IMG/VR virus record: IMGVR_UViG_3300027850_000002
Coordinates: 1-64,000 of that record
Strand: one strand, 5' to 3'
Source of the DNA: a virus
Length of the DNA stretch: 64,000 nucleotides
Shown here: in pieces, positions 4,324-13,135 of the stretch
How positions within the stretch are numbered: the first letter of the stretch is position 1
Layout: each line of letters begins with the position of its first letter
Translations under genes and position numbers: made by a program
The notes under the pieces: generated by a model
Told to the model about the DNA's origin: nothing
Databases searched by the model: none
The model's input: the letters and a program-made list of their open reading frames with translations, nothing else

Positions 4324-5219
4324 AATTCACCCAGCAGGCGACGAAACGCGTTGGTCAGCTGGTTTGCGTACCATTTGTAGTACGCCTGCTTGGTCCATCC
4401 ATCCTCGGGATCGTAGTTGTCCGCGAGCATGAAGCCCTGGTGGTCGACGTTGAAATGAACACCACGCTCGTTGACGTTCACTGACCAACGTTTGCCCTGT
4501 GGACATTCGCTACCTGCGAGTAGTGTTCTCTCGCGCGGCTTCGCTTTCAGGTGCGGCCTATATGCAAGCCAACCATCGACCGTCCAGTTGACGACCCACT
4601 TCTGCTTGGCGTCTGCCGCCCAGTCCGGCCCGATCAACTCACGCAGATGCTCTTCATCGGTGAGTCCAGGGTAGCGTGGCAAGTAGCCGAGCTTGGAAAT
4701 CAGCTCTTGGGTGAATTCCATCCAAGGCAGCCCGCCCTCGCGCGGTGCACTGTCATCGACGATGCACGCGTTGCAGCGAGATGTGCCTGTTGACTCGTGC
4801 ACGTGTTCCCACGGCAGCCCAGTCACGGCGTTGTAGAGCCACGGAGGCGATTTCTGCGTCGTTCCATGGTTGTCCGGATTCCGTGGGTATGTGGCCGCAT
4901 GGGGACGACTGATTTCAGCAACGTCCACGCACCACAATCCACATAGATCGCATTGCTCGTGGTCGGGCGTGCGGGGCTCGGTCGGCGCCTTTCGCTTTGC
5001 CTTGTTCGCCGCGTTCGCGCTCTTGTAGCTCTCGCGCTTCGGCTTCTTCGCTGGCACACAGATACATGGCGGCGTTCCGTCATGGATGGCACGACGTGCC
5101 TTGCACTTTACTTCAACGCGATCGTAGTGCCCCTCTCCCTGTGGGATCGATACGTATTGACGCTTGCGCGTCGTCTTCTTTTTCTTAGGTGTCATCTTCG
5201 TCCTCCGAAGTCCAGACAA
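4320..5219 (-). CDS. Hypothetical Cys-containing protein
   Basis: 299-aa ORF, basic N-terminus, CxxC pairs. Confidence 0.6.
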   Translation of the reverse strand: MSGLRRTKMTPKKKKTTRKRQYVSIPQGEGHYDRVEVKCKARRAIHDGTPPCICVPAKKPKRESYKSANAANKAKRKAPTEPRTPDHEQCDLCGLWCVDVAEISRPHAATYPRNPDNHGTTQKSPPWLYNAVTGLPWEHVHESTGTSRCNACIVDDSAPREGGLPWMEFTQELISKLGYLPRYPGLTDEEHLRELIGPDWAADAKQKWVVNWTVDGWLAYRPHLKAKPRERTLLAGSECPQGKRWSVNVNERGVHFNVDHQGFMLADNYDPEDGWTKQAYYKWYANQLTNAFRRLLGEF

Positions 5220-6500: not shown

Positions 6501-7681
6501 CAGTATAGCCCCTCCAGTGATCACTAGACCAATCCGCTCACAGCGTTTCCAATGCAGCATATCCAGTCATTCGCATGCACGTCCTCACCTCCGTCGTCCG
6601 TTCTATCACCGCGTTTCCAGTCATCCCCGCCACCATGCATGACCATTCCTTTGGCGTTACCGCCATTGTTTCCCGTTTAACACCCATCCAATCACCCCAA
6701 ACCCATTGCAGCCATTCCGGTGCGGTGTGCTCCCATCAGAGCCAAGCCTTCACGGCCCGTTCCGGTGCAGCCATACCATTGCTCTCCGAAGCATTGAATG
6801 CCCCGAGTTTCCCCTGCAGCTGTCCCCCTGTATCGTAGCCCTAACATCACCCGTGCACGCCTATGCGGCCCTACATCTCCAGTGCTTTCCTTCGACGCCT
6901 ACCGTAGGCCGCTCCGCTCCAATGCCGCCGTTCCTTTATCTTGCGGACCACTCGACGCCTCACGCTTCCTATGCAGCCATTCCTAACCGCCTACTTTCCC
7001 CACGCCTCCGTGCCCCACCTGTGACCTCGCCGCCTCTGCAGCTTCTCCACTCGTCACAGTGCCAACCATCACCCGACATTTCCTTTGCAGCCTTTCCGAT
7101 GTGCTCCACGCGAGACAAGTCCTACGTTGTCCACTGCCGCCGGTCCGTTGCCGCCCCGCCCTCTCCACGCGCATCGCACCTAGTCCATAGTACGCTTCGC
7201 GCACCCGCCCCAATGCTGCCTTTCCATCCCTCAACTTTCACTACCTATCAGGTCATTTCCGGTGCTGCCGTTCCAATGCGTCCACTTCATATCCCATGAC
7301 GTCCTGTCGCAATGCGGCAAGTCCGCCCGGCACCACTGCTCGCTCTTCCTCACGCAACCTATACAGCCTATCCACTCCACGCAGTTGACGTCGCACCCTT
7401 ACACCTCATCCACGCTCCACTGCCGCCCTCGCAATCGCGCCCTTCGACTCCTTACATCCACAATCCGATGCAGCATCTCCATTAAGATCCAACACGGTCC
7501 TGACCCATCAGGTCCGGTCGCCTCCCCTGCCGCCACTCACTCAAAAAACAACCCGCAAATCGAATCCATTGCTCTCCGATGCGATCGTTTCCTCACCCTT
7601 CAGAACCAACCCCACGCCGCCTATCCAATGACGTCCGGTGAAGATCGAACCAGCCTAGACGTTCCCTCTGCAGCCACTCAC
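6501..7681 (-). ncRNA. Array of 21 pentamer-periodic units (NN-GGH)n punctuated by a TGCA/GGCA-like tetramer; putative VIPR-like guide RNA array
   Basis: Plus-strand tgcNgc(c)-like motifs at 6504,6553,6607,6658,6707,6766,6815,6864,6923,6972,7037,7086,7135,7214,7263,7313,7362,7421,7469,7528,7615,7669; 16 of 21 spacings equal 5n+4; internal (t/g/a)cc-NN period; no credible ORF. Confidence 0.8.
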
Positions 7682-7685
7682 CCTC

Positions 7686-7716
7686 ACGCCGCGTTGCTGT
7701 CGAGGCAACGAAGCGT
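7686..7716 (-). other. Leader hairpin between partner gene and array
   Basis: acgc..cgttgc(7692-7697)/gcaacg(7705-7710)..gcgt inverted repeat. Confidence 0.5.
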
Positions 7717-7727
7717 AAAGCCGCTGG

Positions 7728-8258
7728 CTACTTCTTCTTCGTCTTGGCCTTCTTCACCGAAGCCTTGACCGCACGCATCGCAGCCATGATGCCAGGCATC
7801 GCAGCCTTGGCCCACCCGTACTTCGCGTGCCGCGCCTTCCACGCCTCGAGCTGCGCGAGCGCCTGCTCGATGACCTGGTCGGCCAGGTCCGGCGTGTCGA
7901 ACACGAACGTTGCGGCCTCGTAGCTGCGATGGTTTTCCGAGTCCCGTACGTTGAAGTACATTTTCATCGGGACCTTCTTGCCCTTGGCGTCCTCGAGCAC
8001 CACCTCGATGGAACGGAGCAGAGCACGCGCCTGCGTCAGCCGAAACTGATGGGCTGCTTTGTGATCGTCCCATTCGAAGTAGCGGTACATCGGCGAGCCG
8101 GTTTTGCTCGCCTCATTGAGCACACGCTCTGCCGTCAACAGTCCGGTCTTCTTGAGCTGCTCGAAGATCTGGCCGAGCACCGGAGCATCCGATTCGCGTA
8201 CCCGAGAGCCGGGCGCGACGCGAAAGGTCATCTTCACGCCTGGTTTTCCTGCCGTCAT
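7728..8258 (-). CDS. Conserved phage protein, accessory partner of the RAMP-like gene
   Basis: LTAERVL..A....SP....FEWDD..AA..FRL.QAR.L.R signature; sits between the RAMP gene and the array. Confidence 0.75.
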   Translation of the reverse strand: MTAGKPGVKMTFRVAPGSRVRESDAPVLGQIFEQLKKTGLLTAERVLNEASKTGSPMYRYFEWDDHKAAHQFRLTQARALLRSIEVVLEDAKGKKVPMKMYFNVRDSENHRSYEAATFVFDTPDLADQVIEQALAQLEAWKARHAKYGWAKAAMPGIMAAMRAVKASVKKAKTKKK

Positions 8259-8279: not shown

Positions 8280-9281
8280 TCACAACCCGAAGTTCTTGCG
8301 CATCTTTGCGATCTGCTCGGGCGTCGCGTTCGCGACCAGGTCTTTGAAGCTCCCGTCCAACTTCTCCAACTTCGGGCGACCCGGCGGACGACCGGGCGGA
8401 CGCTTCAGCACCTTGTTGGCCACGGTCACACCGTTGCTCTCGCTCTTCTTGGGGCGCCCCGGCTTGCGCTTCATCGGCGGCGCATCATCGAGAGCCGAAG
8501 CCTCGACCACCTTCTTCGGGCGACCCAGCTTCTTCTTCGGCGCATCCACGACCTCGATGCCATCCTTCGCAGCCTTGGCCCGACCACGTGCCACCTTGGC
8601 GTCGTCCTTGGCGGCCTGCGCTGCCATCGTTTCCTTTGCAGCGATCTGAGCAGCTGCGCGGGCCTGCTCGATGATCTTCTTGCTGGCACCTGCCGGGAAC
8701 ACGTCGAACCGACCGTAGTCACCGCCCTTCTGCGGGCGCCACTCACCGACGCCGTTCTTGGCACCGGCATGCGCGAGCAGCGTGACCACCTGGTGCGGTG
8801 TCAGGACGGAGGCGTCGAAGCCGATGCGGAGCTTGCAGCTCCAGCCCGGGAACTCGGGGCGATAGGCCAACGAGGTCTTCGCCATGCCGCCTTGACCGAC
8901 ACGGACACGTGCCGTGTTCATGATCGGCTTCTTGCCCGTGAACTTGATCGGGATGAGGTCGCCGACCACGTAGACGCCCTGTTCGACGTTGCCACGTGGG
9001 ATCTGGAAGTAGCCGCCCATTGCGGCCATGCCCTTCTTGAACCAGATCGCCTTGACGCAATCCTCGCCCTTGGTGTTCTTGATGCGCGCGCGCTCGCACT
9101 CTTCCTCAGGCACGCGCGGTGCCTTGGTGCGCGAGGCGTTGCCGCCCTGCTTGCGTGCGATGTCGTCCTGCGTCTTCTCGTCGAAGCGCTTCACGAGCAG
9201 GCTGGTGCGGCCGACAATGTCGACCTCCAGTTCCGTGGTCTGAATGTCAGGGACGATGATTCCGAGAGTGTTCTTTGCCAT
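8280..9281 (-). CDS. Cas7/RAMP-like (Vipr-like) RNA-binding protein with AT-hook C-terminal tail
   Basis: N-terminal beta strand then GRTSLL; AYRPEFPGWSCKLRI; C-terminal Gly-rich loop AGAKNGVGEWRPQKGGDYGRF; tail KKLGRPKK, KRKPGRPKK, RPPGRPPGRPK. Confidence 0.75.
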   Translation of the reverse strand: MAKNTLGIIVPDIQTTELEVDIVGRTSLLVKRFDEKTQDDIARKQGGNASRTKAPRVPEEECERARIKNTKGEDCVKAIWFKKGMAAMGGYFQIPRGNVEQGVYVVGDLIPIKFTGKKPIMNTARVRVGQGGMAKTSLAYRPEFPGWSCKLRIGFDASVLTPHQVVTLLAHAGAKNGVGEWRPQKGGDYGRFDVFPAGASKKIIEQARAAAQIAAKETMAAQAAKDDAKVARGRAKAAKDGIEVVDAPKKKLGRPKKVVEASALDDAPPMKRKPGRPKKSESNGVTVANKVLKRPPGRPPGRPKLEKLDGSFKDLVANATPEQIAKMRKNFGL

Positions 9282-9317: not shown

Positions 9318-9334
9318 GTTGAAAGAATTTCAAC
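9318..9334. promoter_or_regulatory. Operator-like inverted repeat upstream of the RAMP-like gene
   Basis: GTTGAAA-gaa-TTTCAAC perfect 7-bp palindrome in an AT-rich intergenic gap. Confidence 0.45.
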
Positions 9335-9550: not shown

Positions 9551-9711
9551 CAAGGTTTCCACAATCGACTAATAACGCACCAGAAACAGGTAGGGAAGCG
9601 CGCAGACCCTTGCTCGGGTACGCCATCCATCCGCTTGTTGCAACACGTCCAGTCGGGGAACCGTTTCGTAACAACGTGAACTACGCCTTCATGATCAGTG
9701 TACGTAGTCAC
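9547..9711 (-). CDS. H-C3 zinc-finger family protein (54 aa, missing from ORF track)
   Basis: Manual translation VTTYTDHEGVVHVVTKRFPDWTCC...FPTCFWCVISRLWKPW. Confidence 0.7.
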   Translation of the reverse strand: MTTYTDHEGVVHVVTKRFPDWTCCNKRMDGVPEQGSARFPTCFWCVISRLWKPW

Positions 9712-10240
9712 GCAGGTCTTCCTTAGCGAGGCACTGCAGACACGTGATCATGACTTGGTCGCGGACCAACTGAAGCTTGGCGTACCGCTCGGTGGTCATC
9801 TCGTTGACGTAAAGTAGGCGTCCGTTGCGTTCACAAAGAGGGTAGAGGTCAAGAGGCTTCCGCGCATGGACGATCCCGGCTACGTCAGCCATTGGGACGG
9901 CCCCTGCCCGAAAGTCTTGGACGATGAGCTTTCCCCTGCGTGTCAGCGTACGTTCGTGGTCAACGTAATCAGATTTGACCAATCGTTCGAGGGCTCCTCG
10001 ACTCAATGAGAATGTTTCCCCTCGTGCATTCGTTTCTAGCCACAACCGTGCACGCGAGGACATCGTGAGCGGGTTGTCCATCTTCAAACAACCCGGACAC
10101 GTTGGCGTCTTGTCACTGCGTTCACCTGTGTCGTAGTACGAACCGCACAAAGTCCAAACAGGGCCGGCGGCCTTCTGCGTCTTGGTCTCGTGGATGACGT
10201 GCCAGACGTACCCACGTTTAACCTTATAGGTTGTCTTCAT
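9695..10240 (-). CDS. Double H-C3 zinc-finger protein with central winged-helix-like segment
   Basis: YVWH..LCG..PTCPGC; LERLVKSDYVD..TLTRRG; DVAGIVH..LC..ITCLQCLA. Confidence 0.7.
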   Translation of the reverse strand: MKTTYKVKRGYVWHVIHETKTQKAAGPVWTLCGSYYDTGERSDKTPTCPGCLKMDNPLTMSSRARLWLETNARGETFSLSRGALERLVKSDYVDHERTLTRRGKLIVQDFRAGAVPMADVAGIVHARKPLDLYPLCERNGRLLYVNEMTTERYAKLQLVRDQVMITCLQCLAKEDLRDYVH

Positions 10241-10458
10241 GGTTCTGCGCTCCTTGCCAGACACGCGAAACATGTGGTTGGTGGAGGTGTTGTTACAACG
10301 AAACAGACTTCGTCGATCGTTCCACCGTTGTGTGAGAACGCTTCGATGATGTCAGGGTCTATAGTGAACAGAATTTCGCACACCGTCTTGCCCCAGTGAT
10401 CTTCATCCTCGGGCCGGAACTGTACGTGCGCGAGTCCGTCATCTGTCTTGATGAGCAC
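10237..10458 (-). CDS. H-C3 zinc-finger family protein
   Basis: DDGLAH...VC...TTCFACLA. Confidence 0.7.
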   Translation of the reverse strand: MLIKTDDGLAHVQFRPEDEDHWGKTVCEILFTIDPDIIEAFSHNGGTIDEVCFVVTTPPPTTCFACLARSAEP

Positions 10459-10459
10459 G

Positions 10460-10663
10460 TTACAACGGGCCTTTATCTAGCTCGCGATCCACCATCGCGA
10501 TGCATTGGATGCACATGGGGAACTGTCCAGGTTCTGGCTTGAACGAGCTGTTGAGGTATTGCTCTTTGCCGCAGACGAGGAGGATGCCTCGCATCTCGTA
10601 CTTCCAATGTGTGACACCGTAGTTGTCGGTGAAAAGTGTGATGTTGTGTACCGGCCTATCCAT
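10460..10663 (-). CDS. H-C3 zinc-finger family protein
   Basis: DNYGVTH...VC...PMCIQCIA. Confidence 0.7.
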   Translation of the reverse strand: MDRPVHNITLFTDNYGVTHWKYEMRGILLVCGKEQYLNSSFKPEPGQFPMCIQCIAMVDRELDKGPL

Positions 10664-10838
10664 GCTTGAAGTTCCCGATGCACAAGAGGCACGTTAGGAT
10701 TTTGTCGCCGCCGAAGTATTTGGCCCCGATGATCGACTGCCCACACGCGGCCCAGATCGCATCCTTGTAGATGACGTGCTTCAAGCCGTCTTGGCCCATG
10801 TAGTAGCGGTCGAATGTCCAGGTTTTACGGCGTGCCAT
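10656..10838 (-). CDS. H-C3 zinc-finger family protein
   Basis: QDGLKH...AC...LTCLLCIG. Confidence 0.7.
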   Translation of the reverse strand: MARRKTWTFDRYYMGQDGLKHVIYKDAIWAACGQSIIGAKYFGGDKILTCLLCIGNFKHG

Positions 10839-11094
10839 GGCTTACGGGTCTCGGAGGGATCGCAACAGGTAGTTGACGGCGTTAAGCGTGTCGTGCACCA
10901 TGTTGATATCCCCTCTCCGATGCGACGTTTACCCGATAATCTCGTGCCCGCCATGAAGCCCCTTTGCTTCTATTCCATGTTCTCGGCTGAGCAGTGCCCC
11001 AAGGCTCTGGCTTGGATGGCAGCGCTTTGCGCTTCCACGGGACGCGGACATGACGCTGAGCAGTGGCTGATCGAGCTGATCGAGTCGGTGCTGT

Positions 11095-11310
11095 TCACCC
11101 ACCAGAACGTCGTTCGGCCGACCGAGATTGCGCTGCGAGACACTGCAAGCATGTCGTGATCTTCCGACGGGTTGGCTCGAGCTGCGCTGACGGCCAGATG
11201 GAAACTTCGCCAGCGCCCTCATAGTTTTCGCAGGCGGTCACACGTACACCCAGCTCATGGTCTTGTGCATCGTGCACGAGCCCGTCGGGGTCTAGGTAGC
11301 GGCGAGGCAT
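11095..11310 (-). CDS. H-C3 zinc-finger family protein
   Basis: DPDGLVH...AC...TTCLQCLA. Confidence 0.7.
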   Translation of the reverse strand: MPRRYLDPDGLVHDAQDHELGVRVTACENYEGAGEVSIWPSAQLEPTRRKITTCLQCLAAQSRSAERRSGG

Positions 11311-11489
11311 TGAAGACAGGTCACGGGTTGGTGAAAGACTTCTTCCATGTCCCGCATGTTGAGGTCAAACCCGCCGACGTCATCGGCTTCGCAGACCATG
11401 AGCGAGTTGGCTCCAAAGCTCCCACCGCAGACGTGAACGAGGCCTTTTCGGTCCCGGAACGTCTGTGGTTCACGCTTTTTCCACGTCAT
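11292..11489 (-). CDS. H-C3 zinc-finger family protein
   Basis: DRKGLVH...VC...VTCLQCLA. Confidence 0.7.
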   Translation of the reverse strand: MTWKKREPQTFRDRKGLVHVCGGSFGANSLMVCEADDVGGFDLNMRDMEEVFHQPVTCLQCLAAT

Positions 11490-11869
11490 GCACCCGCCTC
11501 CGCGATGCACCAGAAGCAGTAGACGGGGTCGTGCTCCCAGATCGCGTGGTCGTTGACGATCTCCTCGAGTTCGCCGGCTAGTTCCGTCAGGGCCGTGTGC
11601 ACCATGTCGTCGTAGTAACCGCCGCCCGCCATGAAGCTTTGCCTCGACTCGTACGCACATCCGCCGAGGTAGTCACTGCACGTAATGCCTTTGTACGTGG
11701 CCGACACTTTGACAATGCACCACGCCCATTCGTTGCCGCGAGCAAGCTGATCCCGAATCCACTCCACACATGTTGGGTCGTCAAACTCTCCAACATAGCT
11801 TCGGTCCTCGGGTTCGACGAAAAGTTTGACTGCCGCGACCTTTTTCAGCTTCTCTAGGTCGATCTTCAT
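11486..11869 (-). CDS. Conserved phage protein ending in a captured CxxC tail
   Basis: GNEWAWC..V.A...DYLGGC.Y...GGYYDDM followed by YCFWCIAE. Confidence 0.65.
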   Translation of the reverse strand: MKIDLEKLKKVAAVKLFVEPEDRSYVGEFDDPTCVEWIRDQLARGNEWAWCIVKVSATYKGITCSDYLGGCAYESRQSFMAGGGYYDDMVHTALTELAGELEEIVNDHAIWEHDPVYCFWCIAEAGA

Positions 11870-12078
11870 CGTCCTTGCCACCGTTCTTCGACGATGCGAA
11901 CGGCGTCGTCCTGGTCCGCGGCGTCGCCCCATCCACCGCGAGCGTCTCGCCATCGCCATGCAGGCCCGGTCCCCCGGTTCACAGGCTCGAAGTTCTTGAA
12001 TTCGACTTCGCCGGTGACGACACCGTCGATCACAACCTCGGCGCACATGGTGCCGGGCTTCTTACGCAGCTCAGTCAT
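11866..12078 (-). CDS. Hypothetical protein
   Basis: ATGA-coupled ORF MTELRKKPG... Confidence 0.5.
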   Translation of the reverse strand: MTELRKKPGTMCAEVVIDGVVTGEVEFKNFEPVNRGTGPAWRWRDARGGWGDAADQDDAVRIVEERWQGR

Positions 12079-12521
12079 GGTTTTCCTTTCGCCCAATAGG
12101 CGATGCAGTCGAAGCACGTGACGGCTTCGACCTGCGGTCGTCGTCCGACAGCCGTTTCGATTCCGCATGAGAATTGAAACGTCGGATCCGCCCACGAGAT
12201 GCACTTGAACGCTTGATGGACAGTACCCTCGTGTTCGACGAGCATCTTCTCGCCGTTGTTGTAGTCTCTCGCGCGGACGGTTTGCTGCTCGCGGTCCTTC
12301 GTGATGATGTCTTCCGTTTCCTCGGACGCATACCAACCACGTTCCCGATCTTCGAGGTCGACGACTTCTTCTTCGTTGTACGGATTGATCTGGACGGCAC
12401 CACAGTGGCGGCATACGGCCGCAGTCACTTGTTGCATGCCGACGCCATTGTCGACGTACTCCGCGTCTGTATCACGCGAGCCGCACCAACCGCAGGTCAC
12501 CACTGGATGCAGGTCAGGCAC
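12075..12521 (-). CDS. Zinc ribbon fused to H-C3 finger
   Basis: CGWC..CRHC then HEGTVH..SC..VTCFDCIA. Confidence 0.7.
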   Translation of the reverse strand: MPDLHPVVTCGWCGSRDTDAEYVDNGVGMQQVTAAVCRHCGAVQINPYNEEEVVDLEDRERGWYASEETEDIITKDREQQTVRARDYNNGEKMLVEHEGTVHQAFKCISWADPTFQFSCGIETAVGRRPQVEAVTCFDCIAYWAKGKP

Positions 12522-12745
12522 GTGATTGACGGTGCGACCTCAAGCGAGCCGGGGTCGCCACTGTTGATCGCGCGGCAGGGGCACATGAAGTTGAGGTACG
12601 CAACGCCTTGCGCGACGTTCCACTCAACATTGTACACTGCCGTAATGACCAACATGTGTCCAAGTCCATCAGGTCCGATGACGATCTCGTGATCGCCGAC
12701 CTTGGGCAGTGTGCGTGCCTGCGCCAGGACTTCGTTGAGCTTCAT
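12497..12745 (-). CDS. H-C3 zinc-finger family protein
   Basis: GPDGLGH...MC...ITCLTCIQ. Confidence 0.7.
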   Translation of the reverse strand: MKLNEVLAQARTLPKVGDHEIVIGPDGLGHMLVITAVYNVEWNVAQGVAYLNFMCPCRAINSGDPGSLEVAPSITCLTCIQW

Positions 12746-13135
12746 GGCCACGTCTTTTCCTCGCTGATGGCCAGCTCGTAGTCTTCGTGGTTGAGGTTGA
12801 TCGCCATGCCACGTGCTGTGCGTGCCGCGTCCGTGCACGGACCGACCGCCTGGACGGACTCTCGCGTCTTCTTGTCGATGACGTGGACGTACTCAACGTC
12901 AGGCTTCTTTTTCTTCAGCAACGTTAGTTCCTTTCAGCGCGTCGAGCCGGCGTTTCGTCGGACCCGCCATCAACGCGTTCAGTTCACGATCCGTCTTTTC
13001 GCTGCCTTCGTTTGTGAGCATTGCGTAGAGCAGCTCGAGGACTTCGACGTCCCGCATTCGAGAATCATATCGAGGGCGTCGCTCGGGTCTCGCGCCATGA
13101 CAGCGTAGATGCCGATGGCCACACGTCCCGTCTCT

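Follow-up and report, generated by a model that had tools for sequence, protein, structure and literature searches.

A phage Vipr protein with a clade-restricted, polycationic C-terminal tail carrying AT-hook-like motifs

VIPR systems of phages, described in 2026, employ a single RAMP protein, Vipr (10.64898/2026.04.26.720920, 10.64898/2026.04.26.720927 and 10.64898/2026.10.15.759431; hereafter the VIPR preprints). Vipr polymerises on its guide RNA with one protomer per 5-nt GGY/NN repeat (10.64898/2026.04.26.720927), and the resulting filament passes the two strands of the DNA through its core and silences transcription; in the SUSP1 filament the target DNA is unwound inside the core, and SUSP1 filaments dimerise end to end (VIPR preprints). 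The protein is portrayed as minimal, ~20 kDa in size and without elaborations (10.64898/2026.04.26.720920,.720927), and the Vipr proteins of SUSP1 and of a Pseudomonas fulva prophage (PDB 36pp) are ~195-200 amino acids long and stop right after the last core strand. Here we describe a Vipr that continues for 137 residues beyond this point. It is encoded in the first 64 kb (the window, positions 1 to 64,000) of a 175,415-bp IMG/VR virus record (IMGVR_UViG_3300027850_000002; 59% GC, CheckV completeness 94%, freshwater metagenome), and an initial annotation of the sequence had read it as a RAMP-like protein with a C-terminal multi-AT-hook tail. The gene and its parts, with the predicted local distance difference test (pLDDT) of the AlphaFold2 model where it defines them, are as follows.

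8280..9281, minus strand: vipr gene, 333 amino acids plus stop, matching SUSP1 Vipr in the PDB and phrog_4652 (E 2e-16)
8694..9281, minus strand: Vipr RAMP core, residues 1-196, with RRM fold, thumb (Y140-R141) and G-loop (G177..E180-W181-R182), based on AlphaFold2, Foldseek and invariant residues
8283..8693, minus strand: C-terminal tail, residues 197-333, net charge +18, restricted to one clade
8565..8681, minus strand: Ala/Lys-rich long helix, residues 201-239, pLDDT 85-91
8352..8564, minus strand: disordered basic Pro-rich linker, residues 240-310, containing every GRP, pLDDT 43-55
8511..8537, minus strand: hook 1, KKKLGRPKK, residues 249-257 (GRP 253-255, 8517-8525), the best Pfam AT_hook stretch (tail residues 53-62)
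8445..8471, minus strand: hook 2, KRKPGRPKK, residues 271-279 (GRP 275-277, 8451-8459), the hook kept most widely in the clade
8397..8423, minus strand: V-A-N-K-V-L-K-R-P motif, residues 287-295, the best-conserved tail element, with A288, K290 and R294 invariant
8370..8405, minus strand: hooks 3 and 4, KRPPGRPPGRPK, residues 293-304 (GRP 297-299 and 301-303), a doubled PGRP
8283..8351, minus strand: terminal helical hairpin, residues 311-333, ending ...RKNFGL, with AlphaFold2 helices at 312-317 and 321-331 (pLDDT 84-92)

The RAMP-like protein of the initial annotation is, more precisely, the Vipr of a VIPR system, as established by its match to SUSP1 Vipr, its RAMP fold and the vipr-vap-array synteny found both here and in a related locus (L088). 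A phmmer search of the PDB matched SUSP1 Vipr (36pp_D, E 3.3e-6) over residues 134-193, which span the thumb and the Gly-rich loop, and this was the sole solved structure matched by sequence. The phrog_4652 match covers residues 16-194, and tblastn matched 151 phage records, Felixounavirus among them; blastn of the vipr locus against phage records gave no match, and no Pfam family was found for the whole 333-residue protein. The AlphaFold2 model, built from a 43-sequence alignment (mean pLDDT 80.6), shows a confident RRM-type fold with pLDDT mostly above 85 in the core, and its best Foldseek matches were Csm3, Cmr4 and type VII Cas7 (probability 1.0) in a library older than the Vipr entries. 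Among homologues R141 and R182 never vary, and W181 hardly does; they are the counterparts of the GGY-holding thumb R138 and the G-loop D177-W178-R179 of SUSP1, with E180 here in place of the G-loop Asp. Like the SUSP1 and P. fulva systems, the locus is phage-encoded and combines a RAMP/RRM core, a thumb Arg and an acid-Trp-Arg G-loop with a following vap gene and a flanking 5-nt-periodic, G-rich guide array. Filament formation and silencing of double-stranded DNA by this protein would be expected. A GGAG Shine-Dalgarno sequence lies ~8 nt upstream of the vipr ATG.

The tail was originally placed after the Gly-rich loop at about residue 195. The loop itself lies at ~173-190, a beta strand (192-196) comes next, and the tail accordingly begins at residue 197 and not directly behind the loop. 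The span first noted, 8280-8690 on the minus strand, takes in residues 198-333 of the 333-residue open reading frame and its stop codon. The 137 tail residues comprise 18% Ala, 17% Lys and 9% Pro, with 33 K+R against 15 D+E, and the AlphaFold2 model agrees with the layout given in the initial annotation, namely an Ala/Lys helix, a GRP region and a terminal helix. The linker (19 K+R, 8 D+E, 11 Pro) has no secondary structure in the model. The three motifs quoted there, KKLGRPKK, KRKPGRPKK and RPPGRPPGRPK, are present as written and contain four GRP, which form three clusters, each separated from the next by 22 residues. From the tail composition 0.06 GRP would be expected, and at least four occurred in 0 of 200,000 shuffles. 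When a basic-flanked GRP cluster was sought in all frames of the 175-kb genome, none was found elsewhere, barring an antisense artefact of the same DNA. The GRP pair of hooks 3 and 4 in RPPGRPPGRPK (8373-8393) makes up a doubled PGRPPGRP produced by a tandem duplication of 12 nt (8373-8402; Tandem Repeats Finder counts 2.5 copies), and hooks in the tail appear to have been gained by replication slippage. An ESM Atlas search with the tail returned no usable feature match, its structural rows all having a template modelling (TM) score below 0.4.

To place the tail in the family, 5.8 billion proteins were searched, yielding 43 homologues, and 29 full-length relatives (57-81% identical) were aligned as a clade; three close matches stand outside this alignment, P0026 and P0032 with tails of 28 and 37 residues and P0033, an N-terminally cut fragment. 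Tails in the 29 relatives are 59-137 residues long (median 112). The sister branch P0034 (55% identity) has 8 residues past the core, and 85 of 86 more distant Vipr loci, drawn from 80 viral contigs and 6 genomes, have at most 21. In a quick maximum-likelihood tree, midpoint-rooted and with long outgroup branches, all tail bearers fall in one clade (Shimodaira-Hasegawa-like approximate likelihood ratio test, SH-aLRT, 100), whose early branches carry tails of 8, 37 and 59 residues. The comparison of homologues proposed in the initial annotation thus identifies the tail as a lineage-specific add-on, confined to one clade of GC-rich freshwater phages. Its appeal to a GC-rich host fared less well: tail-clade loci have 59-67% GC, and 37 of the 86 tail-less loci also reach at least 58%, so we rejected adaptation to GC-rich hosts as a specific explanation. 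The one distant homologue with a long extension, L023 (IMGVR_UViG_3300037011_000696, ~4600-4810), bears a 67-residue acidic tail (21 D+E, 5 K+R), a solution of opposite charge that could be autoinhibitory or a DNA mimic.

Across the 29 relatives no tail indel breaks the frame and the proteins keep the ...G-F/L terminus, showing that the tail is translated, and an untranslated artefact or a lost-stop gene fusion was rejected because frame and terminus are kept over 29 diverged sequences. In codon-level tests with three relatives (L088-L090), dN/dS (the ratio of non-synonymous to synonymous substitution rates) was 0.22-0.36 for the core, against 0.55-0.80 for the tail; the tail is relaxed, yet its open frame and conserved terminus are not compatible with non-coding DNA. 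This relaxation, together with frequent indels, a variable hook number and one hook derived from the 12-nt slippage duplication, would be expected of a low-complexity appendage that is under weak constraint and lacks a specific role. Such an explanation is nonetheless very improbable, since 29 diverged members have kept 59-137 codons open and terminus, internal motif and positive charge are all conserved.

The pattern of conservation within the tail is uneven. Net charge is +10 to +18 in all 29 members, the internal V-A-N-K-x-L-R-R motif occurs in 29 of 29 and a C-terminal G-[FLV] in 27 of 29, and the A-G-A-S-K-K start of the long helix is nearly invariant. GRP, by comparison, is absent from 6 members, single in 7, double in 7, triple in 8 and fourfold solely in this protein, and some members have KKRGRKP in its stead. 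The invariant features therefore appear to be the positive charge, the VANKxLRR motif, which the initial annotation missed, and the terminal helix, which it noted in passing; the GRP count is not among them. Selection seems to act on a polycationic, proline-rich, duplex-DNA-binding property, of which AT-hooks would be one implementation, and on a particular element at the terminus as well. For the terminal helix (T-P-E-Q...R-K-x-x-G-L/F), half of an SAP/HeH motif and a clamp-binding-type C-terminal peptide were considered as possible identities; the former was rejected, as no Pfam SAP, HeH or Rho_N match was found in any of the 29 members. One relative, L091 (13-801; Ga0315284_10467843), has no GRP and carries a histone-H1-like, KPAKPAKPA-type repeat, KPTKAKPAKTAKAKPAKPAKPAKPA, between the long helix and the terminal hairpin.

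The literature definition of an AT-hook (PMC11354804, PMC4615771) is a motif of 10-15 residues built around a GRP core, in which K/R lie 1-5 residues away and prolines are often close by. All four GRP of the tail (at 253, 275, 297 and 301) fit this description, with K/R on both sides and in a disordered segment. They share with HMGA-type AT-hooks (PF02178, KRPRGRPKK) the GRP core, the flanking K/R, the proximal prolines and the arrangement as copies in a disordered basic segment, and differ from them in having Leu or Pro instead of Arg before GRP, in a sub-threshold Pfam score and in the prokaryotic virus context. AT_hook was the only Pfam family to match the tail, in 10 of the 29 members at E values up to 10 (best 0.012).

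When 1.84 billion representative proteins were searched with the tail by itself, four relevant ones came up from beyond the clade (P0086-P0089), each bearing repeated hooks; the carriers are unrelated to Vipr and none is a RAMP. In common with the tail they have a [KR]R[KG]PGRP[KR]K unit, recurring every 17-22 residues, with a short spacer of acidic or polar residues after it. P0086, a SWIM zinc-finger protein with six KRKPGRP[KR]K units of the hook 2 type (KRKPGRPRK), and P0089, with repeated KRGPGRPRK/KRRPGRPKGSKNK units, have 6-9 hook repeats each and were missed by Pfam AT_hook; P0087 and P0088, with RGRP or AGRP hooks (KRGRGRPKK, KRKAGRPK), passed it with 61 and 28 bits. One of the multi-hook proteins has a sub-threshold HhH match. 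Since P0086, with six clear PGRP hooks, is missed, the Pfam model evidently disfavours PGRP cores, which suggests that the P-G-R-P hook is a recurring prokaryotic module under-detected and under-annotated via Pfam. A fifth match, P0090, is a nematode polyprotein allergen and was set aside as unrelated.

We favour, with middling confidence, a model in which the multivalent tail binds duplex DNA, non-specifically or via the minor groove, and thereby adds avidity to the filament. In this model, Vipr would coat the GGY/NN-repeat guide RNA at one protomer per 5 nt and silence matching double-stranded DNA, and the extension adds a rigid helix of ~39 residues, a disordered polycationic linker of ~70 residues and a short conserved terminal hairpin. 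The linker carries 0-4 AT-hook-type [KR][KR][KR]-P-G-R-P-[KR]-K motifs in the clade, the four found here being the most seen. Guide units are spaced ~49-65 nt, and a filament should therefore contain ~9-12 protomers and as many tails; with the published stoichiometry (10.64898/2026.04.26.720927) this supports the earlier proposal that a polymerising ribonucleoprotein (RNP) would display many copies. Each filament might thus carry ~35-50 hooks and a tail charge of ~+160 to +215. C-terminal His/Strep tags on SUSP1 and P. fulva Vipr permit purification of assembled RNPs (VIPR preprints), so the C-terminus is exposed. With the target DNA inside the core, we infer that the tails, held on ~58 Å helical stalks with flexible 70-residue linkers, extend to duplex DNA beyond the footprint; the DNA they touch would be flanking or more distant duplex and not the enclosed target, and they would engage, with high avidity though little specificity, both phosphates and the narrow minor grooves of A/T tracts. 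The effects could be faster non-specific DNA capture during a target search that is independent of a protospacer-adjacent motif (PAM), and a silencing complex stabilised or extended on flanking or bridged DNA. Scanning of AT-rich promoters by the tail might at most be conjectured. The replacement of hooks by H1-like KPA repeats in L091 and the gain of a Lys-rich tail on Vap in the same clade support the model.

Several points weigh against it. On the tail alone, Pfam AT_hook (PF02178) scored 11.5 and 12.9 bits (E 0.31 and 0.11), below the gathering threshold of 17.4, and the residue before each GRP is L252, P274, P296 or P300, so the first Arg of the canonical R-G-R is absent. GRP-type AT-hooks can bind RNA, and with higher affinity than DNA (PMC4615771). 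The absence of GRP from 6 of 29 members indicates that it is dispensable in evolution, and generic polycation binding is accordingly more probable than a specific AT-hook mechanism. The most conserved parts of the tail, the VANKxLRR motif and the terminal G-F/L helix, resemble a specific docking element more than a brush that binds DNA, and tail-less Vipr works in equally GC-rich hosts. The designation of the motifs as AT-hooks therefore holds in the sense of the literature definition and does not extend to the Arg before Gly, to the Pfam threshold or to conservation (0-4 copies); "AT-hook-like" is the fair label, with minor-groove binding a prediction from sequence.

The affinity of some GRP hooks for RNA raises the alternative that the tail helps to load Vipr on, or hold it to, the long back-to-back guide transcript, or stabilises the exposed guide backbone, and arrays in the clade are unusually long and tightly packed (~1.2 kb here, ~2.5 kb in L088). 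RNA preference, however, belongs to extended AT-hooks, whose basic patches lie 6-20, mostly 12-15, residues from GRP (PMC4615771), and here K/R directly abut every GRP core, as in DNA-binding hooks. The H1-like KPA variant and the multi-hook proteins with a SWIM zinc finger or a sub-threshold HhH match likewise point to DNA, and we consider a role in RNA binding improbable.

The neighbouring elements of the locus are the following.

7728..8258, minus strand: vap accessory gene, 176 amino acids, 21 nt past the vipr stop; phrog_15946, with homologues adjoining vipr in mycobacteriophages
6560..7720, minus strand: guide (vrRNA) array, G-rich non-coding, ~1.2 kb, 41% G; no part of the window has a stronger 5-nt periodicity

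The 176-residue gene was assigned as vap because its homologues directly follow tail-less vipr genes in mycobacteriophages, for example Brocalys gp45/gp46. Cheoctovirus mycobacteriophages and a cyanophage also have a related gene following their vipr. It belongs to a family other than vap1 of the SUSP1-type Felixounavirus (phage heid), with which hhalign detected no homology (probability 0.15%). In the tail clade Vap ends with a Lys-rich stretch of 13-20 residues, which more distant Vaps in the alignment are without; the vap of L091 likewise has a Pro/Lys-rich tail.

With Vap required for VIPR function in natural SUSP1 infection (10.64898/2026.10.15.759431), the tail could instead be a tether to a protein partner, the VANKxLRR motif and the terminal G-F/L helix docking on Vap, a neighbouring Vipr or a protein of the host, such as RNA polymerase or a sliding clamp, and the linker serving as spacer. 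The near-universal retention of both elements while GRP ranges from 0 to 4, and the confident prediction of the terminal hairpin, speak for this. The same Vap family, however, is paired with tail-less Vipr in mycobacteriophages, and the linker is strongly positive in every member, a charge that a passive spacer would not need; we regard docking as an unlikely, though not negligible, explanation. A predicted complex between Vap and the tail (197-333) scored 0.00, a value that speaks neither for nor against docking.

A further alternative is self-association through the long Ala-rich helices and the multivalent basic linkers, which would gather filaments into bundles or, together with DNA, into a condensed silencing body. 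The confident 39-residue helix lies beside a multivalent, charged disordered region, and the end-to-end dimers of SUSP1 filaments offer a parallel; the helix, though, lacks a clear heptad pattern and is short or missing in several clade members, and bundling of this kind is quite improbable.

Returning to DNA binding by the tail, a close architectural parallel is CarD of Myxococcus xanthus, which has an unfolded HMGA-like tail of ~140 residues with four RGRP hooks (PMC4374960); that this tail can be functionally replaced by an H1-like tail in myxobacteria is reported there with reference to earlier work (PNAS 2009 106:13546). CarD of other myxobacteria carries an H1-like K/A/P-rich domain. Both proteins join a folded N-terminal domain to an unfolded multi-hook tail of ~140 residues, and in both families KPA-type repeats can stand in place of hooks (L091 here). 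They differ in that the N-terminal domain is a RAMP in Vipr and binds RNA polymerase in CarD, and in that CarD has canonical RGRP and an acidic block and no terminal helix. Among bacterial regulators, the xenogeneic silencers H-NS and Lsr2 carry an AT-hook-like Q/RGR motif (PMC4466236), and WhiB7 is cited as having a C-terminal AT-hook (PMC11354804). H-NS and Lsr2 form oligomers coating DNA, comparable to the Vipr filament; unlike Vipr, all three are not RNA-guided and have a single hook per subunit (in a folded domain in H-NS and Lsr2), and they show no sequence relation to it. A rather doubtful extension of the favoured model is that RNA-guided nucleation at the target is followed by dozens of AT-hook or H1-like tails and the Lys-tailed Vap clamping, bridging or spreading over neighbouring duplex in the manner of H-NS/Lsr2. 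If that were true, the locus would encode a natural RNA-programmed nucleoid-silencing machine and provide a precedent for engineered Vipr fusions.

The VIPR family is known, and the tailed variant is new relative to the VIPR preprints, whose three main texts and one supplement mention no AT-hook, C-terminal extension or natural Vipr fusion; the tail is in this sense as unusual as the initial annotation held. The discovery preprint, whose tables list 667 Vipr representatives, proposes synthetic fusions to the Vipr C-terminus as a tool route, and the clade described here represents a natural fusion of a DNA-binding-type multivalent tail at exactly that position, offering an evolution-tested attachment point and linker design. 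The tail also gives a handle on how PAM-less filaments find their targets in the nucleoid and on repression strength, and its deletion would separate RNA-guided recognition from non-specific DNA affinity. Should the tail do nothing measurable, it would amount to a lineage-specific low-complexity appendage only.

L088 has an identical vipr-vap-array layout, with its array the longer of the two. Within the core, K31 (9189-9191) aligns with SUSP1 H17, the reader of the first GGY guanine, in a region where the N-terminal alignment is uncertain; a His equivalent to H17 is present in many homologues, and the tail clade has an invariant Lys-Arg-Phe at that place. The substitution may be related to the alternating GG/xG pentamers of the array, in which the 10-nt periodicity exceeds the 5-nt one.

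A search of sequencing runs listed no RNA run and two freshwater DNA runs, both possibly the source sample. Upstream of vipr, an A/T-rich palindrome, TTGAAATTCTTTCAA, lies at 9318-9334, ~40 nt from the start. It may serve as promoter or operator, and a minor-groove-binding tail could reach a site of this kind. Finally, a run of small genes at 9695-12840 on the minus strand, as well as L088:2232-2762, encodes proteins ending in a C-x-x-C zinc-ribbon-like motif (…TCLxCI/L…), and the 192-residue zinc-ribbon-like gene immediately upstream of vipr is syntenic in L088.

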